From a phage: 33,627 nt of DNA. Below, one piece after another: positions 1,765 to 27,331 of this stretch (its first letter is position 1; every line of letters starts with the position of its first letter). The stretch lies in NCBI GenBank assembly GCA_012551655.1, contig GCA_012551655.1_3034.1, one strand, 5' to 3'. The notes beneath the pieces were generated by a model that was given only the letters and a program-made list of their open reading frames with translations, was not told the DNA's origin and did no database searches. The position numbers and the translations under genes are program-made.

Positions 1765-4700
1765 ATGGCCGAGATTAAAAGAAAGTTCAGAGCAGAAGAT
1801 GGTCTGGACGCAGGTGGCGATAAAATAATCAACGTAGCTTTAGCTGATCGTGCCGTAGGAACTGACGGTGTTAACGTTGATTACTTAATTCAAGAAAACA
1901 CAGTTCAACAATACGATCCAACTCGTGGATATTTAAAAGATTTTGTAATCATTTATGATAACCGCTTTTGGGCTGCTATAAATGATATTCCAAAACCAGC
2001 AGGAGCTTTTAATAGCGTACGCTGGAGAGCGTTACGTACTGATGCAAACTGGACAACTGTTTCATCAGGACCTTATCAATTAAAATCGGGCGAATCAATT
2101 TCAGTTGATACTGCAGCTGGTAATGACATTACATTTACTTTACCATCTTCTCCAATTGATGGTGATACCATCGTTCTCCAAGATATTGGAGGAAAACCTG
2201 GAGTTAATCAAGTTTTAATTACAGCTCCGGTACAAAGCATTGTAAATTTTAGAGGTCAGCAAGTACGTTCAGTACTAATGACTCATCCAAAATCACAGAT
2301 AGTTTTAATTTTTAGTAATCGTCTGTGGCAAATGTATGTTGCTGATTATAGTAGAGAAGCTGTAGTTGTAACTCCTGCGAGTCTCTATCAGGCACAATCA
2401 AACGATTTTATCGTACGTAGATTTACTTCTGCTTCAGCAATTAATATTAAACTTCCAAGATTTGCCAATCATGGCGATATTATTAATTTCGTTGATTTGG
2501 ATAAATTAAATCCTCTTTATCACACAATTGTTACTACATATGATGAAACAACTTCAGTACAAGAAGTTGGAACTCATTCCATTGAAGGTCGTACATCGAT
2601 TGACGGTTTCTTGATGTTTGATGATAATGAGAAATTGTGGAGATTGTTTGACGGGGATAGTAAAGCACGTTTACGCATTATAACAACTAATTCTAATATT
2701 CGTCCAAACGAAGAAGTCATGGTATTTGGCGCGAATAATGGAACAACCCAAACAATTGAACTTCAGCTTCCGACTGATATTTCTGTTGGTGATACTGTCA
2801 AAATTTCCATGAATTACATGAGAAAAGGACAAACAGTTAAAATCAAAGCTGCCGGTGAAGATAAAATTGCTTCTTCAGTTCAATTGCTGCAATTTCCAAA
2901 ACGTTCAGAATACCCACCTGAAACTAAATGGGTGACTGTTCAAGAATTAGTTTTTAATGGTGAAACCAATTATGTTCCAGTTTTACAGCTTGCTTATATC
3001 GAAGATTCCGATGGAAAATATTGGGTTGTACAGCAAAACGTTCCAACTGTAGAAAGAGTAGATTCTTTAAATGATTCTACTAGAGCAAGATTAGGCGTAA
3101 TTGCTTTAGCTACACAAGCTCAAGCTAACGTCGATTTAGAAAATTCTCCACAAAAAGAATTAGCAATTACTCCAGAAACATTAGCTAACCGTACTGCTAC
3201 AGAAACTCGTAGAGGTATCGCAAGAATAGCAACTACTGCTCAAGTTAACCAGGATACTACATTCTCTTTTGCTGATGATATTATCATCACTCCTAAAAAG
3301 CTGAATGAAAGAACTGCTACTGAAACTCGCAGAGGTGTTGCTGAAATTGCTACGCAGCAAGAAACTAATGCAGGAACCGATGACACTACAATCATCACTC
3401 CTAAAAAGCTTCAAGCTCGTCAAGGTTCTGAATCATTATCTGGTATTGTAACTTTTGTATCTACTGCAGGTGCTACTCCAGCTTCTAGCCGTGAATTAAA
3501 TGGTACAAATGTTTATAATAAAAACACTAATAACTTAGTTGTTTCACCTAAAGCCTTGGATCAGTATAAAGCTACTCCAACACAGCAAGGTGCAGTAATT
3601 TTAGCAGTTGAAAGTGAAGTAATTGCTGGACAGAGTCAAGAAGGATGGGCAAATGCAGTTGTAACTCCAGAAACGTTACATAAAAAGACATCAACTGATG
3701 GAAGAATTGGTTTAATTGAAATTGCTACGCAAAGTGAAGTTAATACAGGAACTGATTATACTCGTGCAGTCACTCCTAAAACTTTAAATGACCGTAGAGC
3801 AACTGAAAGTTTAAGTGGTATAGCTGAAATTGCTACACAAGTTGAATTCGACGCAGGCGTCGACGATACTCGTATCTCTACACCATTAAAAATTAAAACC
3901 AGATTTAATAGTACTGATCGTACTTCTGTTGTTGCTCTATCTGGATTAGTTGAATCAGGAACTCTCTGGGACCATTATACCCTTAATATTCTTGAAGCAA
4001 ATGAGACACAACGTGGTACACTTCGTGTAGCTACACAGGTCGAAGCTGCTGCAGGAACATTAGATAATGTTTTAATAACTCCTAAAAAGCTTTTAGGTAC
4101 TAAATCTACTGAAGCGCAAGAAGGTGTTATTAAAGTTGCAACTCAGTCTGAAACTGTGACTGGAACGTCAACAAATACTGCTGTATCTCCAAAAAATTTA
4201 AAATGGATTGTGCAGAGTGAACCTACTTGGGCAGCAACTACTCTGATAAGAGGTTTTGTTAAAACTTCATCTGGTTCAATTACGTTCGTTGGTAATGATA
4301 CAGTAGGTTCAACACAGCCATTAGAATCATATGAGAAAAATGGTTATGCAGTATCACCATATGAATTAAACCGTGTATTAGCAAATTATTTGCCGTTAAA
4401 AGCAAAAGCTGCTGATACAAATTTATTGGATGGTCTAGATTCATCTCAGTTCATTCGTAGGGATATTGCGCAGACAGTTAATGGTTCACTAACCTTAACC
4501 CAACAAACGAATCTGAGTGCCCCTCTTGTATCATCTAGTACTGCTACGTTCGGTGGATCAGTTTCAGCAAATAGTACATTAACTATTTCTAATACTGGAA
4601 CAGCAACTCGATTGATTTTTGAGAAAGGACCTCAAACTGGAACAAACCCAGCCCAAACGATGACTGTTAGAGTGTGGGGTAATCAATTTAGTGGGGAATC

Positions 4701-5634
4701 AGACACAACACGTTCTACTGTATTTGAAGTTGGTGATGAAACGTCTAATCATTTTTATTCTCAGCGCAATAAAGCTGGAAATATAACATTTAATATCAAC
4801 GGTACGGTAACACCTATAAATGTTAATGCTTCAGGAACATTGAATGCAAATGGCGTAGCAACATTTGGTAATTCAGTCACTGCAACTGGTGAAATTATTT
4901 CTCGAAGCGCAAATGCTTTCCGTGCTATTAGCGGAAATTATGGTTTCATTGTTCGCAATGATGGATCAGTAACGAATTTTATGCTTACTGCATCGGGTGA
5001 TCAGACTGGCGGATTTAATGGATTGCGTCCTTTAGCTATCAATAATGCATCTGGTCAAGTAACGATTGGCGAAAGCTTAATTATTGCCAAAGGTGCTACT
5101 ATAAATTCAGGCGGTTTGACTGTTAACTCGAGAATTCGTTCTCAGGGCACTAAAACATCTGATTTATACACCCGCGCGCCAACATCTGATACAGTAGGAT
5201 TCTGGTCAATTGATATTAACGATTCAGCCACTTATAATCAATTCCCTGGTTATTTTAAAATGGTTGAAAAAACTAATGAAGTGACTGGACTTCCATACTT
5301 AGAACGTGGTGAAGAGGTTAAATCTCCTGGTACATTGACTCAGTTTGGTAACACACTTGATTCGCTTTACCAAGATTGGATTACTTATCCAACAACACCA
5401 GAAGCGCGTACCACTCGTTGGACACGCACATGGCAGAAAACCAAAAACTCTTGGTCAAGTTTTGTTCAGGTATTTGACGGAGGTAACCCTCCTCAACCGT
5501 CTGATATTGGTGCTTTACCATCTGATAATGCTATAATGGGTAATCTTACTATTCGTGATTTCTTACGAATTGGTAATGTTCGCATTATTCCTGACCCAGT
5601 GAATAAAACTGTTAAATTTGAATGGGTTGAATAA
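1765..5634 (+). CDS. 34: Long tail fiber proximal subunit gp34 (1289 aa)
   Basis: 1289-aa ORF, same length as T4 gp34; late promoter upstream; followed by 35-36-37-38; internal ~38-aa repeats (ITPKKLNERTATETRRG...IATQ). Confidence 0.95.
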   Translation: MAEIKRKFRAEDGLDAGGDKIINVALADRAVGTDGVNVDYLIQENTVQQYDPTRGYLKDFVIIYDNRFWAAINDIPKPAGAFNSVRWRALRTDANWTTVSSGPYQLKSGESISVDTAAGNDITFTLPSSPIDGDTIVLQDIGGKPGVNQVLITAPVQSIVNFRGQQVRSVLMTHPKSQIVLIFSNRLWQMYVADYSREAVVVTPASLYQAQSNDFIVRRFTSASAINIKLPRFANHGDIINFVDLDKLNPLYHTIVTTYDETTSVQEVGTHSIEGRTSIDGFLMFDDNEKLWRLFDGDSKARLRIITTNSNIRPNEEVMVFGANNGTTQTIELQLPTDISVGDTVKISMNYMRKGQTVKIKAAGEDKIASSVQLLQFPKRSEYPPETKWVTVQELVFNGETNYVPVLQLAYIEDSDGKYWVVQQNVPTVERVDSLNDSTRARLGVIALATQAQANVDLENSPQKELAITPETLANRTATETRRGIARIATTAQVNQDTTFSFADDIIITPKKLNERTATETRRGVAEIATQQETNAGTDDTTIITPKKLQARQGSESLSGIVTFVSTAGATPASSRELNGTNVYNKNTNNLVVSPKALDQYKATPTQQGAVILAVESEVIAGQSQEGWANAVVTPETLHKKTSTDGRIGLIEIATQSEVNTGTDYTRAVTPKTLNDRRATESLSGIAEIATQVEFDAGVDDTRISTPLKIKTRFNSTDRTSVVALSGLVESGTLWDHYTLNILEANETQRGTLRVATQVEAAAGTLDNVLITPKKLLGTKSTEAQEGVIKVATQSETVTGTSTNTAVSPKNLKWIVQSEPTWAATTLIRGFVKTSSGSITFVGNDTVGSTQPLESYEKNGYAVSPYELNRVLANYLPLKAKAADTNLLDGLDSSQFIRRDIAQTVNGSLTLTQQTNLSAPLVSSSTATFGGSVSANSTLTISNTGTATRLIFEKGPQTGTNPAQTMTVRVWGNQFSGESDTTRSTVFEVGDETSNHFYSQRNKAGNITFNINGTVTPINVNASGTLNANGVATFGNSVTATGEIISRSANAFRAISGNYGFIVRNDGSVTNFMLTASGDQTGGFNGLRPLAINNASGQVTIGESLIIAKGATINSGGLTVNSRIRSQGTKTSDLYTRAPTSDTVGFWSIDINDSATYNQFPGYFKMVEKTNEVTGLPYLERGEEVKSPGTLTQFGNTLDSLYQDWITYPTTPEARTTRWTRTWQKTKNSWSSFVQVFDGGNPPQPSDIGALPSDNAIMGNLTIRDFLRIGNVRIIPDPVNKTVKFEWVE
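3150..4210 (+). repeat. Intragenic array of about 9 degenerate ~110-nt repeats inside gene 34
   Basis: Recurring nucleotide blocks (atcactcctaaaaagct..., actgaaactcg(c/t)agaggt...) encoding repeats of (I/V)TP(K/E)xLxxRxATE(T/S)xxG(I/V)AxIAT(Q/T). Confidence 0.7.
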
Positions 5635-5642
5635 GAGGTATT

Positions 5643-6761
5643 ATGGAAAAATTTATGGCAGAGTTTGGACAAGGATATGTCCAAACGCCATTTTTATCGG
5701 AAAGCAATTCAGTAAGATATAAAATAAGTATAGCGGGTTCTTGCTCGCTTTCTACTGCAGAAGGACCATACGTTAAATTTCAGGATAATCCTGTTGGAAG
5801 TCAAACATTTAGCGCAGGACTTCATTTAAGAGTTTTTGACCCTTCTACAGGAGCATTAGTTGATAGTAAGTCATATGCTTTTTCGACTTCAAATGATACT
5901 ACATCAGCTGCTTTTGTTAGTTTCATGAATTCTTTTTCAAACAACAGACTTGTTGCTATATTAACCAGTGGAAAGGTTAATTTTCCTCCTGAGGTAGTAT
6001 CTTGGCTAAGAGCCGCGGGAACGTCTGCTTTTCCATCTGATTCTATATTGTCAAGATTTGACGTATCATATGCTGCCTTTTATACTTCTTCTAAAAGAGC
6101 TATTGCATTAGAACATGTTAAACTAAGTAATAGAAAAAGCACAGATGACTATCAAACTATTTTAGATGTTGTATTTGATAGTTTAGAAGACGTTGGAGCT
6201 ACAGGATTTCCTAAAAGAACATACGAAAGCGTTGAGCAATTTATGTCAGCGGTTGGTGGAACTAATAACGAAATTGCACGTTTACCAACTTCATCCGCGA
6301 TAAGTAAACTCTCTGATTATAATTTAATTCCTGGCGATGTTCTTTATCTTAAAGCACAGCTATATGCTGATGCCGATTTACTTGCGCTTGGAACTACAAA
6401 TATATCTATCCGTTTTTATGATGAATCGAATGGATATATTTCTTCAACACATGCTGAGTTTACTGGACAAGCTGGGTCATGGGAATTAAAGGAAGATTAT
6501 GTAGTTATTCCAGAAAATGCAGTAGGATTTACGATATATGCACAAAGAACTGCCCAAGCAGGTCAAGGAGGCATGAGAAATTTAAGCTTTTCTGAAGTAT
6601 CAAGAAATGGCGGCATTTCAAAACCTGCTGAATTTGGCGTCAACGGTATTCGCGTTAATTATGTCTGTGAATCCGCTTCGCCTCCAGATATAATGGTACT
6701 TCCTACACAAGCATCGTCTAAAACTGGTAAAGTGTTTGGGCAAGAATTTAGAGAAGTTTAA
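5643..6761 (+). CDS. 35: Long tail fiber hinge connector gp35 (372 aa)
   Basis: 372-aa ORF as in T4 gp35; SD agagg before ATG; position between 34 and 36. Confidence 0.9.
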   Translation: MEKFMAEFGQGYVQTPFLSESNSVRYKISIAGSCSLSTAEGPYVKFQDNPVGSQTFSAGLHLRVFDPSTGALVDSKSYAFSTSNDTTSAAFVSFMNSFSNNRLVAILTSGKVNFPPEVVSWLRAAGTSAFPSDSILSRFDVSYAAFYTSSKRAIALEHVKLSNRKSTDDYQTILDVVFDSLEDVGATGFPKRTYESVEQFMSAVGGTNNEIARLPTSSAISKLSDYNLIPGDVLYLKAQLYADADLLALGTTNISIRFYDESNGYISSTHAEFTGQAGSWELKEDYVVIPENAVGFTIYAQRTAQAGQGGMRNLSFSEVSRNGGISKPAEFGVNGIRVNYVCESASPPDIMVLPTQASSKTGKVFGQEFREV

Positions 6762-7488: not shown

Positions 7489-10400
7489 ATGGCTACTTTA
7501 AAACAAATACAATTTAAAAGAAGCAAAACTGCAGGAGCACGTCCTGCCGCTTCAGTATTAGCCGAAGGTGAATTGGCTATAAACTTAAAAGACCGTGTAC
7601 TTTTTACTAAAGATGACCAAGGAAATATTATTGATCTGGGTTTTGCTAAAGGCGGTAGTATTGACGGGAATGTTATTCATACAGGCAATTATAACCAAAC
7701 TGGCGATTATACTTTAAATGGCGTCTTCACTCAGACTGGTAATTTTAATTTAACTGGTATTGCTCGAGTAACTCGCGATATTATTGCCGCTGGGCAGATT
7801 ATGACTGAAGGCGGAGAACTTATTACAAAAAGTTCAGGTACAGCGCATGTTCGTTTTTTCGATAACAATAGTCGCGAACGCGGAATCATTTATGCCCCGG
7901 CTAATGATGGTTTAACTACACAAGTACTTAATATCAGGGTTCAAGACTACGCCGCTGGTAGCGAAAGCACTTATGCATTTTCAGGCAGTGGACTATTTAC
8001 TTCACCTGAAGTATCAGCATGGAAATCTATTTCGTCTCCACAAATTCTGACCAACAAAGTCATTACTAATAATAAATCTACGGGTGATTATGACATTTAT
8101 TCGATGGCAGACAATGTTCCACTGTCTGAAAGCACTACTGCTATTAATCATCTACGTGTCATGCGCAATGCAGTCGGTTCTGGTATTTTCCATGAAGTTA
8201 AAGATAATGATGGAATAACTTGGTATAGTGGAGATGGATTAGATGCTTATCTTTGGTCATTTACCTGGAGCGGCGGAATTAAATCAAGTCACTCAATTTC
8301 TATCGGTTTAACACCCGGTAATAAAGATTATTCAATATTAGGACCATCTAGCATTGCTTTAGGAGATAATGATACTGGATTTAAATGGCATCAAGACGGA
8401 TATTATTTCAGCGTTAATAATGGCACAAAAACGTTTTTATTTAGCCCTAGCGAAACAACTAGCCTAAGAAAATTTGTAGCTGGATATTCTACTAATGGAA
8501 CCGATTTAACTACTCCTCCAACTGAAAACTATGCTCTTGCTACTGTTGTGACATATCACGATAATAACGCGTTTGGAGATGGTCAGACTCTTTTGGGATA
8601 TTATCAAGGTGGTAATTATCATCATTATTTCCGCGGCAAGGGTACTACAAACATTAATACTCATGGCGGTTTGTTGGTTACTCCTGGTAATATTGACGTT
8701 ATTGGCGGTTCTGTAAATATAGATGGCCGTAATAATGCTTCTATACTGATGTTTAGAGGTAACACAACTGGTAGTAGCTCAGTTGATAATATGACAATTT
8801 CCGCGTGGGGTAATACTTTTACTAATCCTAGTGAAGGTACCCGTAAAAATGTCATGGAAATTTCTGATGCAACTAGCTGGATGAGCTATATTCAAAGACT
8901 TACTACTGGTGAAGTAGAAATGAACGTTAACGGTTCATTTGAATCATCTGGTGTTACTGCTGGAAATAGAGGAGTTCACACAACAGGCGAAATTTCATCT
9001 GGTGCAGTGAATGCTCTTCGTATTTGGAACGCAGATTATGGAGCCATTTTTAGACGTTCAGAAGGAAGTCTTCATATTATTCCAACTGCTTACGGTGAAG
9101 GTAAACACGGCGATATTGGTCCACTTCGCCCATTTAGTATGGCTTTAGATACTGGTAAAGTTACTATTCCAGATTTACAATCAAGTTACAATACGTTCGC
9201 TGCTAACGGTTATATTAAATTTGTTGGTCATGGAGCGGGTGCCGGCGGTTATGACATTCAATATGCTCAAGCGGCTCCTATTTTCCAGGAAATTGATGAT
9301 GATGCTGTAAGCAAATATTATCCTATTGTTAAACAGAAGTTTTTAAATGGTAAAGCCGTTTGGTCTTTAGGTACTGAAATTAATTCGGGTACATTCGTTA
9401 TTCATCATCTGAAAGAAGATGGATCACAGGGCCATACATCAAGATTTAATGCTGATGGTACAGTTAATTTCCCTGATAATGTTCTGGTCGGTGGTGGTGA
9501 AGCTGCTATTGCTCGTAATGGTAATATTTTCTCGGATATTTGGAAAACGTTTACTTCTGCAGGCGACGTAACTAATATTCGCGATGCAATAGCTACTCGT
9601 GTTGCCAAAGAAGGTGATACGATGACCGGCACTCTTTGGATTAATAAAGATGCTGCTGGAATAGTTCTTAATCCTCCTTTGGCCAGTGATTCATCATTTA
9701 TTCGTTCCGATACGGCCGGGGTCAATAATTGGTATATTGGTAAAGGCGGTGCCGACAATGGTCTAGGTTTTTACAGTTATGTTACACAAGGCGGTGTATA
9801 TATAACAAATAACGGAGAAATATCACTTTCTCCTCAAGGCCAAGGAACATTTAATTTTAATAGAGACCGCCTCCATATAAACGGTACACAATGGACCGCA
9901 CACCAGGGAGGTGGTTGGGGAAATCAATGGAATCAAGAAGCACCGGTATTTGTAGATTTTGGTAATGTTGGTAATGATAGTTATTATCCTATTATTAAAG
10001 GAAAATCCGGTATTACTAATGAAGGATACATATCTGGTGTAGATTTTGGTATGCGACGCATTACTAATACATGGGCACAAGGTATTATTCGTGTAGGTAA
10101 TCAGGAAAACGGTTACGACCCACAAGCTGTATATGAATTCCATCATAACGGTACTTTTTATGCTCCAAGCTTACTTAAGAGCAGTAGAGTATCAGCTGGT
10201 GGTGGTGACCCTGCATGGGGCGGGCCGTGTATTGTACTTGGAGATAACGATACCGGTTTGCTTTGGGAAAACGATGGTATTTTCAACGCATATGCAAACG
10301 GCCAAGGTGTGTTTAGTTTTAGACCTGGTTTAGCTCAGACATTCGGTGATGTTAACTTCCACTGTAATGCAGGTATGTATGTTCGTGATAACATTGATGT

Positions 10401-10740
10401 TAACGACGTTTATATTCGTTCTGATATTCGTTGTAAGTCGGAAATTAAGCTTATTAAGAACGCTCAAGAGAAATCTAAACTATTGGGCGGTTATACTTAT
10501 CTGCTTAAAAACTCTGTTACAGACGAAGTTAAACCGTCCGCAGGTTTAATTGCTCAGGAAGTTCAAGAAGTATTACCTGAACTTGTTTCTGAAGATAAAG
10601 AGACCGGACTGCTTCGTTTGAACTATAACGGTATTATTGGTTTAAATACAGCTGCAATAAACGAGCATACAGATGAAATCAAGGAATTGAAATCTGAAAT
10701 TGCCGAATTGAAAGCATTAATTAAATCATTGATAAAATAA
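7489..10740 (+). CDS. 37: Long tail fiber distal subunit gp37 (1083 aa) with C-terminal intramolecular-chaperone-like domain
   Basis: Large ORF after 36, N-terminus [39 protein letters not shown] typical of gp37; C-terminal ~120 aa ([10 protein letters not shown]...[15 protein letters not shown]...coiled coil) resembles auto-cleaved fiber chaperone domains. Confidence 0.95.
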   Translation: [1083 protein letters not shown]

Positions 10741-10770: not shown

Positions 10771-11550
10771 ATGGCAGTAGTAGGAATCCCTGGTTGGATT
10801 GGGACTTCAGCCGTTGCTGAAACGGGACAAAGATGGATGACGGCTGCTTCAAGGGAACTTCGTTTAGGAAACCCTTCATGGATGTCCCAATTCGCGGGCC
10901 GTTCAAGAGAAATAATTCACACACTTGGAGCAGACCATAACTTCAATGGTCAATGGTTCCGAGATAGATGTTTTGAGGCAGGTAGTGCACCTATAGTGTT
11001 TAATATCACCGGAAATTTGGTATCATATAGTAAAGATGTTCCATTATTCTTTATGTATGGCGATACGCCAAATGAATATGTTACTTTGAATATTCATGGC
11101 GGAGTTCATATGTGGGGACGAGGTGGTAACGGTACTGTAAACGGAAACCCAGGCACTAATGGTGGCGATGTAATCCAAAATGATATCGGCGGAAGACTTC
11201 GTATTTGGAACTATGGCGTTATTGCATCAGGCGGTGGCGGTGGTGGTGCAGTGTCATTACAGAATAGCTGGGCACCAAATGCTACAGCAGGTGGCGGTGG
11301 TGGTAGACCGTTTGGCATCGGCGGAGGCGGCGTTAATTGGCCGGGTGGTAATGCTAGTTATGACGCGCCCGGCGGTGCCGGTTACACTTCCCAATTCGGC
11401 GGAGGCAATGGCGGTGATGCTGGAGGTCGGGGTGGAGATGGATGGGGTAATCACTTATCTAGATCCGGCGGTGGTGCTCCAGGTAGAGCGGTATTCGGTT
11501 CTTCACCATCATGGGGTGCAACAGGCACGATCTACGGTTCCTGGATTTAA
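10771..11550 (+). CDS. 38: gp38 receptor-binding adhesin of the T2/T6 type (259 aa, glycine-rich motifs)
   Basis: N-terminus [23 protein letters not shown]... and C-terminal half with poly-glycine blocks ([43 protein letters not shown]) as in T2-type gp38; the T4-type gp38 is a 183-aa chaperone. Confidence 0.9.
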
Positions 11551-15423: not shown

Positions 15424-15573
15424 TTACTGCATGACTGTGATAACTGTCATGATAACACGTTGAATTCCGAACGCAAGAAGACCTCCTGCTACGGCTGGAA
15501 CAACGCCTAAACCTGCCAGTAAAATGCTACCAGATACTAATGCAGCGCTTGTAATACCTATGAATGGACTCAT
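15424..15573 (-). CDS. Hypothetical 49-aa hydrophobic (Gly/Ala-rich) membrane peptide, 52.1-like position
   Basis: ATG at 15573 overlaps the gene 52 stop (ATGA); MSPFIGITSAALVSGSILLAGLGVVPAVAGGLLAFGIQRVIMTVITVMQ; not in the ORF track. Confidence 0.45.
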   Translation of the reverse strand: MSPFIGITSAALVSGSILLAGLGVVPAVAGGLLAFGIQRVIMTVITVMQ

Positions 15574-16898
15574 TTGATTTCCTCTAAATCTTTGGTGTAT
15601 TCTGTAACTACATCAGTAGTTTTCCAATATTCGTTTTCTTCTTTTTTAGCTTTAGCTTCTTCAGCAAGTTTCTTCGCTTCATCGGAAGTCATATGAAAAA
15701 TATTCATTCCAACTAGTTTATCAACATAAGAAGAATACATATCGATTTTCGAAAGTTCTTCGGTCAGTTCTTTACGAGTTTTACCCTGTACAACAATTTC
15801 ACCTGAAATTACTTTCTTAATGAAATGTGCCTTGGCAAAGGCTAAACGAAAAGCAGATTCAGTTTCTTTAATTTTGTTATCAATTCGTTTTTGGACATAA
15901 GTTTTACGAACTTCAACAAAGTCTTTAATTAAATCAACTACGTTATCGTAAACTTGTAGTTTTCCTTTCTCATTAATAACCGTAATATTCTGAGAACGAC
16001 GCTCAATCAACCCGAAGTCTTTCATAATTTTTGCATGACGTTCTTCTTCATTATCGCTCAAAGAATATTCTTTGCGGAATTTAACTTTGAATCCAAAACC
16101 ATGCTCACCACAAGCATCATCCCATGTAATGAAGCCTTTATCTTCAAGTGGGTCTAAGATTTTACTCACATAAGTTTCACGATCATACTTATACGGAATC
16201 TCAGTGATATGCATTTGAGTTCGTGAAGTAAACTTATATGTTCCACGAATTTCATATTGCCCATCAATTTCAACGACTTCACCGCGAAATTCTGGGAATT
16301 CTACCTTCGGTTTAGTTACTTTCTTTCCTTGAAGAGCTTGCAGTACAGCTTTCTTAACAGAAGAAACACTATGAGGAAGAATGTAAGTTGCATAACCAGT
16401 TGCAATACCGGAAACGCCATTAAGAAGAACAGTAGGAATAATAGGCAAATAGAAAGCAGGCGGAATGTGTTCTTTATCTTGATGTACCGGAGCATATTCA
16501 GTATCTTTATATACGTTATAGAAATTTTTACTTACACGAGCAAAAATATAACGACTTGCTGCTGCTTTTTGAACGGTACGAGAACCAAAGTTTCCTTGAC
16601 CATCTAACAGAGGAAAGTTATTATTCCAAGTATTAGCCATCAAAGCACCTGCATCTTGTGCAGAGTTTTCGCCATGGTGATATCCAAGGTCTGCTACACC
16701 ACCTGCAATAGAAGCGAGTTTGTGAAACTTATCTTTATTTCCTCGTGCCAAATCAAGAGCTCGAGCAATAACAAATCGTTGAACTGGCTTAAATCCATCA
16801 ATCATATTTGGAATGGCACGATTTTCAACCGTGTACATAGCATAAGCCAATGCTTCATTATCAATGATACTTTTTAAATCGCGATTATTCAGTTGCAT
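15570..16898 (-). CDS. 52: DNA topoisomerase II medium subunit gp52 (GyrA-like, 442 aa)
   Basis: 442 aa as T4 gp52; AAASRYIF active-site-Tyr-like motif; position downstream of ac/stp and upstream of motA. Confidence 0.9.
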   Translation of the reverse strand: MQLNNRDLKSIIDNEALAYAMYTVENRAIPNMIDGFKPVQRFVIARALDLARGNKDKFHKLASIAGGVADLGYHHGENSAQDAGALMANTWNNNFPLLDGQGNFGSRTVQKAAASRYIFARVSKNFYNVYKDTEYAPVHQDKEHIPPAFYLPIIPTVLLNGVSGIATGYATYILPHSVSSVKKAVLQALQGKKVTKPKVEFPEFRGEVVEIDGQYEIRGTYKFTSRTQMHITEIPYKYDRETYVSKILDPLEDKGFITWDDACGEHGFGFKVKFRKEYSLSDNEEERHAKIMKDFGLIERRSQNITVINEKGKLQVYDNVVDLIKDFVEVRKTYVQKRIDNKIKETESAFRLAFAKAHFIKKVISGEIVVQGKTRKELTEELSKIDMYSSYVDKLVGMNIFHMTSDEAKKLAEEAKAKKEENEYWKTTDVVTEYTKDLEEIK

Positions 16899-21232: not shown

Positions 21233-23410
21233 TTAGGCCGCAAGGGCCTTCATAGTTTTAGCGATTTGGGAAACTTCATCATCACTCAAAGAGTTACGAT
21301 AACCGATGAAGTCGGAAACAATACGGAATTTCTTGGTAAACTCAGCAACCATTTTATCACTATTTTTTGAAGCATTACGTGATAATTCATCAAAGAGATT
21401 AGTTACTGTCCAGATATCATGACCGATGGTATCTTTTCCACCATTGAAATATACACCGCGTAATGAACTAACCATATTACCAAGTCGTGTATATTCTTCA
21501 GAAACTTCATCTGTACTGAAGTACTTCATCATAAAATCTAGTTCAGGATACTTGATAATTTTATCAATATATCGTTGAGCTGAACTTGAATAACCTACAT
21601 ACTTATCATAATCTACATCATCAAAAGCATCTACATATAAATCACGCAAAGCTTCAAAAATACATTGGCACTGACCAAGCTCTTTTACCTTTTTCTGCAA
21701 AAGCGGACGAATAACATAAAATTCATTAATGCCAATAAGATTAGCCATACGAATCAAAATATTCATAGATGGATGACAAAGCGATGTAGTACCATCCATA
21801 GAGAAAATATCAGAACGATGCATATACGCTACATAACCAGTAATTTCATCTGCTTCTGACGTAAGTGTAAATAGTTCCTCTTTTTCCCATCGTCCATCTT
21901 TAATTTCAAATTTAAATGCTGTAGCAGCTTTAGGACGAGGAGCTTTACTTTTAACTACCTTTGGAATATAGCTTTTAACTAAAGCTTCAATTTCTGACAA
22001 ATAATGAATGTTAACTTCATCACTTTCAAACATTGCCATAATATCAGGTAGTAAATCAATCTGCGATTCTACTTCCGGATTAATAAACAGAAGACGCTCA
22101 TTGTGATGAATATTTAAAGTGTTATTAAATTCACTATCATCTAACGCATGCGCTAATCCACGGACAATATTAACACGATTTTTAATATTATCAATAACGA
22201 TATTAATTTTTGTTGTATTAATACCAAACAGACGATAACTTGATGCAACGGCTGAAGTTTCATGGCTTTGCTTAATACGCTTCAGTCGAGGGTCAAGATT
22301 TACTTCATACACAACCCCTGCATTGCATAGCTTACTGTCAGGTTCAAACATGCTCTGCATTTTCTTATATGACAGATTTTTAGTCGTGAATTTGACTGAA
22401 TTACTAATCATATAATCTCGAGCAGAATACCCCATCTTCATTAATTCACGATATGTGTGACGAGGAGATGTAGATTCTTTAAATCGTTTTACATCTTCAT
22501 TAAATGCTTTCTCACTGAGTTCTTTAACTCGTTCAATGATATTTTTACGAGTACGATCATCCAGTGAAAGAGCCTCACGAGATGGAGCAATATCAAGTGA
22601 ACCCATTGGAAACTTAATGTAATTCACTTCATTGCGAATGCTTAGCCAGTTACGGTCTCTAATAACACCATCGATAGGATAAACAATACCGCCGTAGATA
22701 GCATATAATCCACCACGATCAGGCCAGTATCTTTCTGGATTTACACCGTAATAGTCATCAAAATCTGGAAAATAATCAATTTCGCGGTCAAGACCATTAA
22801 TGATAGCCAAATCTTTGAATGGTCGCATGATATAAGAAACTTCATAAGCAAAGTTTCTAAAGTCTTTTTCTTCAACTGGAACTACAATTTCAATACCAGT
22901 TTTATCATCTGGACCCATTTCTTTTACGAATGTAGGTTTAATCTGTGGACCATCACCATCCATATAAGCTACATAACCACGAATTTCACCTTTATGATAC
23001 GAAGTAATACTAAATGTATCAGTATAACTAAACGGAGATTTAGAACCTAAACCAAATCCGCCAATGAAATCGTTAGATTCAGCCTTAGATGAACTGAAGT
23101 ATGAATTATACAACCCAGGAGAATTATCATCACCTTGAATATCAAAATCACTCATACCCGGACCAAAATCTCGACAAACAAATCGTGGGTCTAAACGTCC
23201 AGGAATTTGTATGATAAATTTTTCAGGATTTCCATTAAGTGCATGAGCATCAATCATGTTAGTAATCAATTCACGGACTACTGCGCGAATCTTGTTTGTA
23301 TACAAATCAGATGATAGAATTTTAAATACTTTAGGATTTGCTGCGATGCTAAATGCTTTTGATTTAGAACCATTACCAAGAATTGTTTCTTTTTCAGTGG
23401 TGATAATCAT
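21233..23410 (-). CDS. rIIA: rIIA protein (725 aa)
   Basis: 725 aa as T4 rIIA; GHKL-like N-terminal region (IDAHALNG...DFGPGM); followed by rIIB with 11-nt gap. Confidence 0.9.
21236..21250 (-). other. GGCC-loop-GGCC hairpin encoded within the last codons of rIIA
   Basis: GGCCGCAAGGGCC palindrome overlapping the ...MKALAA* coding end. Confidence 0.4.
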
Positions 23411-23420
23411 AATTTCCTCA

Positions 23421-23624
23421 TTAATTCATATTACGTTTAATAACTTCGGCAACTTCTAGTAGTTCATCTTTAGTTGCAGTGTCGGATTGAATTTTATCTC
23501 TAATATCTTTAAAGCGGTTTTTAAATTCTTCGGCTTCTCCCATATCGAAAAAGCGTTGAATGATTCTATATTCTCGATGAACTGCTTTATCAAAAAGTTC
23601 TAAATTTACTTTATATGATTTCAT
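23421..23624 (-). CDS. rIIA.1-like hypothetical 67-aa protein
   Basis: ATG with GAGGA SD downstream of an early promoter, upstream of rIIA. Confidence 0.6.
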
Positions 23625-23649
23625 TTCAATATCCTCATTTGCCCAATTA

Positions 23650-23679
23650 ATTATACCACATCCTTGTGGTAAAGTAAAC
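23650..23679 (-). promoter_or_regulatory. T4-type early promoter for rIIA.1-rIIA, overlapping the 3' end of gene 39
   Basis: GTTTAC (23679-23674), 18 bp, TATAAT (23655-23650). Confidence 0.55.
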
Positions 23680-25496
23680 TACTGGCTCATCCATTCTTTA
23701 CGAAGGTCAGCATTATCTCCCATGAGCATTTCAAAAAGCTCTTTCCAGTTCTCAGGAAGTTTAACAACATCATATACTGGATTTTGAATCATCTCACGAT
23801 ATTCAGATTTTTCCAAAGAGCCAAGTCCTTTAATATAACGGATGCTATGTTTAGGTAGAGCATCTTTGGCACTCTCATATTCAGCGACTGTATAAAACCA
23901 TTCTTGTTTTTTACCGACCTGAGCGATGATTACAGGAGTTTTGACAAAGCGAATTCGTCCTTGCTCAAACAATTCTGGCCAATTACTAAAAAATCCAAGC
24001 AGAGAAGGATAAATGCTTCCTAGACCATCATGGTCAGCATCAGTCATAATAGCAATATTATGATAATTCAAGTTTTCAGCTTTTTCACCGAGAACTAATC
24101 CAGTGATTGCGCAAATATCAAATAGTTCTTTGTTTTTAAGCATATCAGCATATGACATACCCCAACTATTAAGAACTTTACCACGCAATGGATAACCACC
24201 ATGAAGTTCTTTATCACGAACATCAATAAGATATCCGATAGCCGAATCACCCTCAGTCAAGAAAAGAGTCGTGTCAGCATCTTTACCACAAAGATTCGCT
24301 TTAATATGTTTATGAACCTTAGCTTTAGAAGCCTTTTTAGCTGCTTTTGTTTCTGCTGCTTTTTCTGCTGCCAATTTACGAGCCAAAGCAGCTTCAATAA
24401 TCGGCATTAGAATTGCTTCATTATTTAGAATAGCACGTGAAATCTTTTTAGCATCAAGCTGAATATGACTACGGATTTCACCAAATGGAGAAGTCAAACG
24501 CTCTTTAGTTTGAGAATCAAATCGCATGTTTTTCATATCACGAACAAACATAACGATAGTCAAACATTCTTTAACACGTGCTTTAGTTACATCAATTTTG
24601 AATTTACGTTTGATTTGTGGAATAAGGTCTTCACAAATATCATCCATAACACAGTCAATGTGATGGCCACCATTCTTAGTGTGAATGTTATTCACATAAG
24701 TTAATTGACGAAATCCATCCGGTGAACGACCAACCGCAATAGAACAATTTTCTTGTTCTTGAACAATAGCATGTTCATCATACTGTCGTGCATATTTCTT
24801 AAAATTACCCTGAACCTTTTTACCATTAAAGGTAAATTGAATATCAGGATAAACAACAGCAAGTGTCTGGAGACGATCTAGTGTAATGTCAAGATAAACT
24901 TGGGACAGCTCATTAGTTTCAAATGACATAAAATCAGGAATGAAAGTAACACGAGTTCCTTTCCATTTTCCTGGAATAGTTTCCCATGATTTATTTTCCA
25001 TGCCATTTGAACAACGAACTACAATATTATTTTGACCATCGCCAGTTTCACCAACAAACATCACAGAAAAAATGTTAGTTAAACTAGAACCAACACCGTT
25101 CATACCGCCGGTGACGCGTTCTTTATCATCACCGAAGTTACCACCTGCTTTTGGAATAGTCCATGCAGCAACAGGACCAGGAATTTCTTCACCGGTAGGT
25201 GTTTTAACCATCGCTTGTGGAATACCGCGACCGTTATCTTCAACTGTTACTTGATTGTTTTTAATAGTAACGTTAATTTTATTTGCGAATTTAAACTTAG
25301 TACGAATACCTTCATCTACTGAGTTATCGATAATTTCATCAATAAGCTTAACAAGACCAGGTACATACTGAACACTTTCCCATTTACCAAACAGAAAGCG
25401 CTCATGCATTTCATTAGCAGAAGAACCAATGTACATGCCGCTACGCTTTTTGATATGTTCAATATCGCTCAGAATTTTAATTTCATTCTTAATCAT
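23679..25496 (-). CDS. 39: DNA topoisomerase II large subunit gp39, unsplit (605 aa; GyrB-like ATPase plus Toprim)
   Basis: Track ORF begins at GTG; ATG at 25496 with GAGGA SD. Motifs EIIDNSVDE and DNGRGIP (GHKL ATPase), EGDSA and DADHDG (Toprim). Single continuous ORF. Confidence 0.9.
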   Translation of the reverse strand: MIKNEIKILSDIEHIKKRSGMYIGSSANEMHERFLFGKWESVQYVPGLVKLIDEIIDNSVDEGIRTKFKFANKINVTIKNNQVTVEDNGRGIPQAMVKTPTGEEIPGPVAAWTIPKAGGNFGDDKERVTGGMNGVGSSLTNIFSVMFVGETGDGQNNIVVRCSNGMENKSWETIPGKWKGTRVTFIPDFMSFETNELSQVYLDITLDRLQTLAVVYPDIQFTFNGKKVQGNFKKYARQYDEHAIVQEQENCSIAVGRSPDGFRQLTYVNNIHTKNGGHHIDCVMDDICEDLIPQIKRKFKIDVTKARVKECLTIVMFVRDMKNMRFDSQTKERLTSPFGEIRSHIQLDAKKISRAILNNEAILMPIIEAALARKLAAEKAAETKAAKKASKAKVHKHIKANLCGKDADTTLFLTEGDSAIGYLIDVRDKELHGGYPLRGKVLNSWGMSYADMLKNKELFDICAITGLVLGEKAENLNYHNIAIMTDADHDGLGSIYPSLLGFFSNWPELFEQGRIRFVKTPVIIAQVGKKQEWFYTVAEYESAKDALPKHSIRYIKGLGSLEKSEYREMIQNPVYDVVKLPENWKELFEMLMGDNADLRKEWMSQ

Positions 25497-25523
25497 CACT
25501 TATCCTCGTTTGGTTTCGGGAAT

Positions 25524-25547
25524 ATTATACTCCGGTAATCATAAAGC
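25524..25547 (-). promoter_or_regulatory. Candidate MotA-dependent middle promoter for gene 39
   Basis: Minus strand aGCTTTA (MotA-box-like, one mismatch to TGCTTtA), 12 bp, TATAAT (25529-25524); no GTTTAC -35. Confidence 0.4.
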
Positions 25548-25548
25548 T

Positions 25549-25566
25549 AAAGGCCCGAAGGCCTTT
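25549..25566 (-). other. AAAGGCC-UUCG-GGCCUUU hairpin between the lipoprotein gene and the gene 39 promoter
   Basis: 7-bp stem, UUCG loop on the minus-strand RNA; short U-run only. Confidence 0.45.
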
Positions 25567-25826
25567 TATTTAAAACGGATAGTCGAATCCTTGAAGAATA
25601 GACCAGAACATACGGTTCCTTCTACTTTCTGCCCGGTAGGTCCAATAGCGCGAAATCCAGTATGTTGGAAATCATTTTCAGAGCAACCGAACCAATTGTA
25701 TCCAGTGATTTCAATATTAGTAAAACCGCTTGATGACAAAATTTTGGTTGCATTATCAGCATCAGTACATCCTGCTAAAGACACTGCTAATACTAATGCT
25801 GCGATAGAACGATTAATATATTTCAT
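25566..25826 (-). CDS. Hypothetical small lipoprotein (86 aa)
   Basis: ATG at 25826 gives MKYINRSIAALVLAVSLAGCTDADN...: signal peptide with lipobox LAGC; the track start at 25838 is TTG. Confidence 0.55.
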   Translation of the reverse strand: MKYINRSIAALVLAVSLAGCTDADNATKILSSSGFTNIEITGYNWFGCSENDFQHTGFRAIGPTGQKVEGTVCSGLFFKDSTIRFK

Positions 25827-25830
25827 AATT

Positions 25831-26202
25831 TCACTCAAATTTAATGGCTTGAAGAAGACTAATAATTCTCAAGCGACTTCTTTCATCTTTAACTGTAAAA
25901 GAAAGAGGGTCACCAGATTTCATAGTGATGGTGCATCCAAAATCAAAATCTTCTGTAACTTCTTCGAAGAAGTCAAATTCTTCATCATAAATTAGAACAT
26001 TACTCTGAAAGCTGTGAAGAATTTTTCCATCATTTCCAGATGCTGTACTAATCATTGTAACATTATGACCTTTCATATCTTCAACGATAAATTCGCTTGT
26101 AGATATTACTGCATTAATAGAACCGTTCCTATGAATAGCAGAAAATAGATATTTCTTTTCTTCACCTTCGCGAACACGATATTTCTTACCGATTTTAAAC
26201 AT
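25831..26202 (-). CDS. Hypothetical 123-aa protein
   Basis: ATG at 26202, 2 nt after the upstream stop. Confidence 0.55.
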   Translation of the reverse strand: MFKIGKKYRVREGEEKKYLFSAIHRNGSINAVISTSEFIVEDMKGHNVTMISTASGNDGKILHSFQSNVLIYDEEFDFFEEVTEDFDFGCTITMKSGDPLSFTVKDERSRLRIISLLQAIKFE

Positions 26203-27037: not shown

Positions 27038-27307
27038 TTAATTGAACAGTGGAGCGATGCGTTTCAGAAGAGTAGCAGCACCTTTAGCGAATTTTACATC
27101 ATGAAAAACAGTTTCTTCTTCCGTTACAACACGAGCTTTAATGTTTTCACAATCCCAATTTTTGCGAACAATCTTCAAAAGCTGCAGTAAATCTTTACAT
27201 TCAGCAATATCGATAACACATCCACGAGAATCTTCCATTATCGCACGATAACCGTAAGCCATACCATAATCATTGAAAGATTGCTCGATGATAATTAAAT
27301 TTTCCAT
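27038..27307 (-). CDS. Hypothetical 89-aa protein
   Basis: Track ORF starts at TTG; ATG at 27307 with GGAGA SD after promoter leader. Confidence 0.55.
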   Translation of the reverse strand: MENLIIIEQSFNDYGMAYGYRAIMEDSRGCVIDIAECKDLLQLLKIVRKNWDCENIKARVVTEEETVFHDVKFAKGAATLLKRIAPLFN

Positions 27308-27331
27308 TTTATTCTCCAAGTTGTTTTCTGT

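Follow-up and report, generated by a model that had tools for sequence, protein, structure and literature searches.

In T4 the type IIA topoisomerase has three subunits, the only such enzyme known, and in T2 and T6 it has two, gp39 and gp52, with structures given for the T6 enzyme (PMC11461880). We asked which of these arrangements is encoded by a phage contig of 33,627 nt (GCA_012551655.1_3034.1; the whole stretch analysed is called the window from here on), in which an earlier note, made from the sequence without database searches, had described an unsplit gene 39. We are almost certain of the answer: the window carries an intact Tequatrovirus gene 39 that lacks the MobA/bypass cassette, is translated conventionally, would contribute the large subunit of a two-subunit enzyme with gp52 and should present an unoccupied target to MobA.

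The ORF list gives the frame of gene 39 as 23679..25499 (-), with 606 aa from a GTG codon, and an ATG one codon downstream, at 25496, yields a product of 605 aa that begins with MIKNEIK, which is also the start of gp39 in T4, T2 and T6. The coordinates proposed earlier for one continuous 605-codon ORF, 23679-25496, were exact, although the minus strand on which the gene lies had been left unstated, and a scan for in-frame stops returned codon 606 alone. ORFs in other frames within gene 39 are at most 79 aa long and none is MobA-like; the absence of an endonuclease ORF was a point that the earlier note had asked to have confirmed. The G+C content of the window is ~35%, at which an open frame of 605 codons would be far beyond chance. 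A scan of 23300..26000 for promoters and terminators was uninformative on expression, with 7 promoter-like sites against 10.4 expected from shuffled sequences and 1 terminator-like site against 1.2. The coordinates of the gene, its partner and the features discussed below are collected in the following table.

Table. Features of the topoisomerase locus in the window, and differences between its gene 39 and those of three unsplit relatives.
Feature	Position	Strand	Basis or remark
Gene 39, uninterrupted; DNA topoisomerase II large subunit (GHKL ATPase, transducer, Toprim)	23679..25496	-	605 codons plus stop at 23679..23681; ORF list, motifs, Pfam, PHROG, T6 identity
GAGGA, putative ribosome-binding site of gene 39	25503..25507	-	6 nt upstream of the ATG at 25496; read from the sequence
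Native 64-nt segment, replaced in T4 by the ~1.1-kb MobA/bypass cassette	24015..24078	-	Codon 473 third base to codon 494; blastn break points
Codons 491-492, GGT CTA (Gly-Leu), at the T4 gene 60 take-off position	24021..24026	-	Codon-by-codon print of the window and T4 39/60
Gene 52, GyrA-like DNA-cleavage subunit, 442 aa, partner of gp39	15570..16898	-	Pfam DNA_topoisoIV, 259 bits, E = 9e-77
rIIA	21233..23410		Neighbour of gene 39
rIIA.1	23421..23624		Pfam T4_RIIA1
Gene 39 compared with T2			61 nucleotide and 2 amino-acid differences
Gene 39 compared with T6			48 nucleotide and 1 amino-acid differences
Gene 39 compared with PST			33 nucleotide and 1 amino-acid differences

All four motifs that had been assigned to the two halves of the protein were located on this one ORF, the ATPase motifs EIIDNSVDE at aa 54 and DNGRGIP at aa 87 and the Toprim motifs EGDSA at aa 415 and DADHDG at aa 486. 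Residues 47-149 match Pfam HATPase_c at 38.4 bits (cut-off 26.4) and contain the N-box and G1 motifs of a GHKL (Bergerat) ATPase, and residues 250-384 match Pfam DNA_gyraseB at 51.1 bits (cut-off 27), which identifies the transducer (second GyrB) domain; its QTK loop reads RFDSQTK, with QTK at aa 329. The conserved Glu of EGDSA and the DxD acidic cluster of DADHDG show that one polypeptide bears both the Toprim signature and the ATPase. Among the gp39 matches at E <= 0.001 the Pfam model for Toprim proper, PF01751, was absent, and the Toprim assignment draws on the motifs, on a match to Pfam TOPRIM_C at 30.7 bits (cut-off 29) and on a full-length alignment to solved type IIA topoisomerases, all of which are present. 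PHROG 543 ("DNA topoisomerase II large subunit") covers residues 1-605 with E = 1.6e-295.

To compare the gene with its split counterpart we used T4 genes 39 and 60 as translated from NC_000866. Residues 1-473 of the window protein are 98% identical to residues 1-473 of T4 gp39 and residues 472-605 are 96% identical to residues 27-160 of T4 gp60, an alignment in which a single gene covers both T4 products without interruption, as had been claimed; the window protein has nothing that corresponds to the C-terminal 43 residues of T4 gp39 or to the N-terminal ~30 of gp60. At the nucleotide level (blastn), window 25828..24079 aligns with T4 5661..3911 (95.9%) and window 24014..23401 with T4 2793..2180 (98.9%), which sets the break points at window 24079 = T4 3911 and window 24014 = T4 2793. 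Between the two aligned blocks the window has 64 nt (24078..24015) where T4 has ~1.1 kb. The T4 insert resembles the window in T4 2899..2854 only, at 76% over 46 nt, and this is T4's recoded, insert-borne copy. The 64-nt segment of the window is, base for base, that of T2 (64/64), in a gene whose overall nucleotide identity to T2 gene 39 is 96.6%.

The codons at the junction also differ between the two phages. In T4 gene 60 the take-off codon GGA is followed by the UAG stop and the 50-nt coding gap (GAT GGA TAG, 50-nt gap, TTA GGT TCT), whereas the window continues as GAT GGT CTA GGA AGC (D-G-L-G-S), so that its codons 490-493, GAT GGT CTA GGA, include no stop and no gap. This codon-by-codon comparison, with neither a 50-nt gap nor a stop at the hop position, upholds the earlier claim that no translational bypass is involved. 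We also looked for a frameshift or hidden stop at the position of the 39/60 junction, which the earlier note had named as the observation that would speak against an unsplit gene, and found none. Across the junction the window protein reads ...GEKA-ENLNYHNIAIMTDADHDG..., with neither the C-terminal extension of gp39 nor the N-terminal extension of gp60. What the T4 insert adds is a 43-aa C-terminal extension of gp39, the gene for the HNH endonuclease MobA (pseudogenised in the laboratory reference), and a 30-aa N-terminal extension of gp60 together with a recoded homologous stretch and the GGA-UAG take-off with its 50-nt gap.

The further claim that no remnant of mobA persists was borne out by searches of the whole window. 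Full-length MobA (the 272-aa protein of T4T) gave a best tblastn match of E = 0.74, outside the topoisomerase gene, and neither the gp39 C-terminal nor the gp60 N-terminal extension gave a tblastn match with E below 0.1, the best value for all of these queries being E = 0.16. A blastn search with the T4 insert at word size 7 found nothing in the window beyond the 46-nt stretch of 76% identity, and no bypass sequence (take-off GGA, UAG, 50-nt gap, landing GGA) occurs in the window.

Elsewhere in the gene, at 24510..24536 (codons 323-331), the window, T2 and T4T read NMRFDSQTK and the T4 RefSeq gp39 (NC_000866) reads NMRLIRQTK. In the DNA this difference comes down to two indels, -1 and +1, that compensate each other (CGATTGATTCGTCAA against CGATTTGATTCTCAA) just before the conserved QTK loop, and the T4 reference most likely preserves a sequencing error of long standing here; NP_049621.1, the accession that has NMRLIRQTK, was the source of the T4 construct in the cryo-EM paper (PMC11461880).

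The break points can be set against what is known of the element that interrupts the gene in T4. mobA encodes a free-standing HNH endonuclease whose target is gene 39 (PMC2988022). The MobA element is 1097-1106 nt long; it endows the first ORF with a C-terminal extension and the second with an N-terminal extension and the bypass cassette, and from the parental gene it removes 55-75 nt (64 in the worked example), putting in their place a recoded homologous region of 67-81% identity that, in the clade 1 element, reaches 9 nt past the landing codon (bioRxiv 10.1101/2022.08.31.505936). The window corresponds to this description at each point, with the break after codon 473, a replaced stretch of 64 nt, an identity of 76% to the T4 copy and three divergent codons past Gly491. 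In the part of the same preprint that summarises Bonocora et al. 2011, MobA is stated to nick T2 within the replaced region, phages without MobA are stated to be converted efficiently in mixed infection, and the bypass insert is stated to shield the donor from self-cleavage (bioRxiv 10.1101/2022.08.31.505936, citing Bonocora et al. 2011). The T2 gene, unsplit like that of the window, is the recipient that has been used experimentally. Judged by its sequence, the 64-nt segment of the window would likewise be an unoccupied, naive homing target of MobA, and co-infection with a T4-type phage carrying an intact mobA should convert the window gene to the split form by homing. We make this prediction because the segment agrees at every base with the stretch of T2 that MobA, by the preprint's summary, is reported to nick. 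The practical value of the locus is only that of a reference empty site, in a phage that should act as a recipient in MobA homing crosses.

We then considered how common this state is. A 2.5-kb region used as a query matched 562 phage records at 95-99% identity, and nearly all belong to Tequatrovirus-type phages that infect Escherichia, Shigella, Yersinia and Salmonella. Since a query of this length could merge pieces that flank a 1.1-kb insert, we used a 191-nt query centred on the junction and scored the junction as uninterrupted where at least 80% of the query was covered in one place. This was the case in 456 phage records, and 43 records in the same collection have the T4-type insert, so that about nine-tenths of the sequenced relatives are unsplit. 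An unsplit gene 39 is thus the ordinary majority state, with the split form of T4 as the exception, and it was already known: genomes such as this one have been termed 'parental genomes (no MobA insert)' (bioRxiv 10.1101/2022.08.31.505936). The earlier observation is confirmed and its interpretation supported, and the caveat concerns their significance and not their correctness. One might ask whether the site, whose sequence here equals that of a target into which MobA reportedly homes with efficiency, stays empty in this phage and in ~90% of relatives by virtue of selection against a split, bypass-dependent enzyme, or of a barrier to homing, and not from mere lack of exposure. We think this unlikely; if it were true, the window allele would be a useful naive recipient in which to measure the fitness cost of the cassette.

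An intact gene might also be a restored one. The lineage could once have had the MobA/bypass cassette and have lost it precisely, for instance by recombination with an unsplit relative, in which case the unsplit state would be secondary and not ancestral. T-even genomes are mosaics, no record is near-identical to the window (the closest matches 95% of 25 kb at 95.6%, broken into 5 pieces), similarity to T4 is higher on the downstream side of the site (98.9%) than on the upstream side (95.9%), and lineages with partial loss of the element have been described (bioRxiv 10.1101/2022.08.31.505936). However, the losses described there retain the C-terminal extension, the N-terminal extension or the bypass, and the window shows no scar of any of these; in addition its 64-nt segment has the native form, identical to that of T2, and not that of the 76% insert-borne copy, and its nearest matches suggest a placement among unsplit phages. 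A perfect back-conversion is indistinguishable from never having been invaded, and we hold precise loss to be very improbable.

That the continuous ORF is an artefact of assembly or consensus, with an interruption masked by a collapsed insert or by a chimera of two co-occurring phages, is harder still to reconcile with the data: an independent record, PQ799574, agrees with the window at all 191 nt of the junction region (100%), the junction is uninterrupted in the 456 records counted above, and the gene is colinear with those of T2, T6 and PST with zero indels. We give this explanation next to no probability. The same holds for an interruption or recoding of another kind than that of T4, such as an intein, a homing endonuclease of another family or a programmed frameshift. 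Other phages do have GIY-YIG, VSR and intein variants at this locus (bioRxiv 10.1101/2022.08.31.505936), but the window protein, at exactly 605 aa, equals the solved T6 protein in length and has nothing inserted, its gene has neither an in-frame stop nor any ORF above the 79-aa limit in other frames, and its Pfam matches are to topoisomerase domains only. Colinearity with T6 gp39, the lack of any indel and these Pfam matches exclude an intein, a GIY-YIG or VSR endonuclease and a frameshift in gene 39. Overall, an intact gene 39 that does not carry the cassette is the reading with which we proceed; annotators need seek neither a gene 60 nor a bypass in this phage, and the call correctly marks it as a Tequatrovirus of the T2/T6 type, whose topoisomerase II has two subunits.

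The surroundings of the gene were also inspected. Gene 39.1 (25566..25826, -) encodes 86 aa from an ATG; the N-terminus resembles a signal peptide and there is a lipobox-like LAGC, features shared with T6 and T4T. In the T4 RefSeq the 65-aa version alone is annotated, without that N-terminus. Its product matches PHROG 902 (unknown function) and no Pfam or NCBIfam family. Between 39.1 and 39.2 lies an ORF of 123 aa (25831..26202, -) that is found in T6 and PST ('RB69ORF005c-like') and belongs to PHROG 622 (unknown function), with a weak match to the N-terminal part of goF-type families; T4 is without a counterpart and has a gap of ~106 nt there. An ORF of 188 aa on the opposite strand (25429..25995, +) is antisense to the 5' end of gene 39, to gene 39.1 and to the 3' end of the 123-aa ORF; this frame is probably spurious. 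Between cef and motB is a 93-aa ORF (27038..27319, -) that matches PHROG 3720 (unknown function) and no Pfam family; the equivalent place holds an ORF in T2 and only an intergenic gap in T4, T6 and PST.

Further away, the G+C content peaks at 11-12 kb (0.447 against ~0.35), coinciding with the gene for a 259-aa gp38 adhesin (10771..11550, +; Pfam GP38 and Gp38_N), which is preceded by that for a 1083-aa distal long-tail-fibre protein (7489..10740, +) with a C-terminal Peptidase_S74 'chaperone of endosialidase' domain. We take this gp38 to be of the T2/T6 type and not the 183-aa chaperone of T4, and a T2/T6-type gp38 fits a T2/T6-like topoisomerase locus. Across the whole window the top-matching record changes from segment to segment, and over 25 kb it is AUBRB02, with 95.6% identity at 95% coverage, split into 5 pieces; the phage, a mosaic Tequatrovirus, is itself absent from the phage collection searched.

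What enzyme would such a locus provide? Gene 39 would be translated into one polypeptide of 605 residues that comprises the GHKL ATPase, the transducer with its QTK loop and the Toprim domain, with no need for ribosomal bypass. The product of gene 52 matches NCBIfam models of the GyrA/ParC type below the cut-offs of the bacterial equivalogs. Together with gp52, encoded ~7 kb away, gp39 would form an ATP-dependent A2B2 topoisomerase of type IIA, as its counterparts do in T2 and T6, a proposal made because of its near-identity to the active T6 enzyme. T-even topoisomerase II relaxes DNA and does not supercoil it. Relaxation in preference to supercoiling is also reported for the T-even enzymes in PMC11461880, and the 604/605 identity of the window protein to the active T6 protein (PMC11461880) suggests that it too would have ATP-dependent DNA relaxation activity.

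Among known systems the unsplit T-even phages are the closest. Gene 39 is 1818 nt long in the window phage, T2, T6 and PST, and the alignment for which the earlier note had called is colinear throughout with zero indels; the gene order rIIA, rIIA.1, 39, 39.1 is that of T2, T6 and PST. T6 gp39 (YP_010067157.1; cryo-EM chain 8ylu_C, PDB 8ylu and related entries), also of 605 aa, is identical at 604 positions and colinear, the sole substitution being Q526 in the window for H526 in T6, and most of the nucleotide differences between the two genes (48) are silent. The domain order and the two-subunit arrangement with gp52 are common to both, and at one residue from a solved structure the window protein needs no structural work of its own. 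Bacterial GyrB and ParE share the fold family and the motif set, and gp39 aligns over its full length with their structures and models. However, it scores 218 bits against a cut-off of 882 with the gyrB model TIGR01059, 234 against 740 with PRK05644 and 169-209 against 723-900 with the parE models of NCBIfam, far below the curated cut-offs, and is accordingly a homologue and not a member of the bacterial gyrase B and Topo IV ParE equivalogs. T4 has the same enzyme and the same neighbours as the window, rIIA, rIIA.1 and 39.1.
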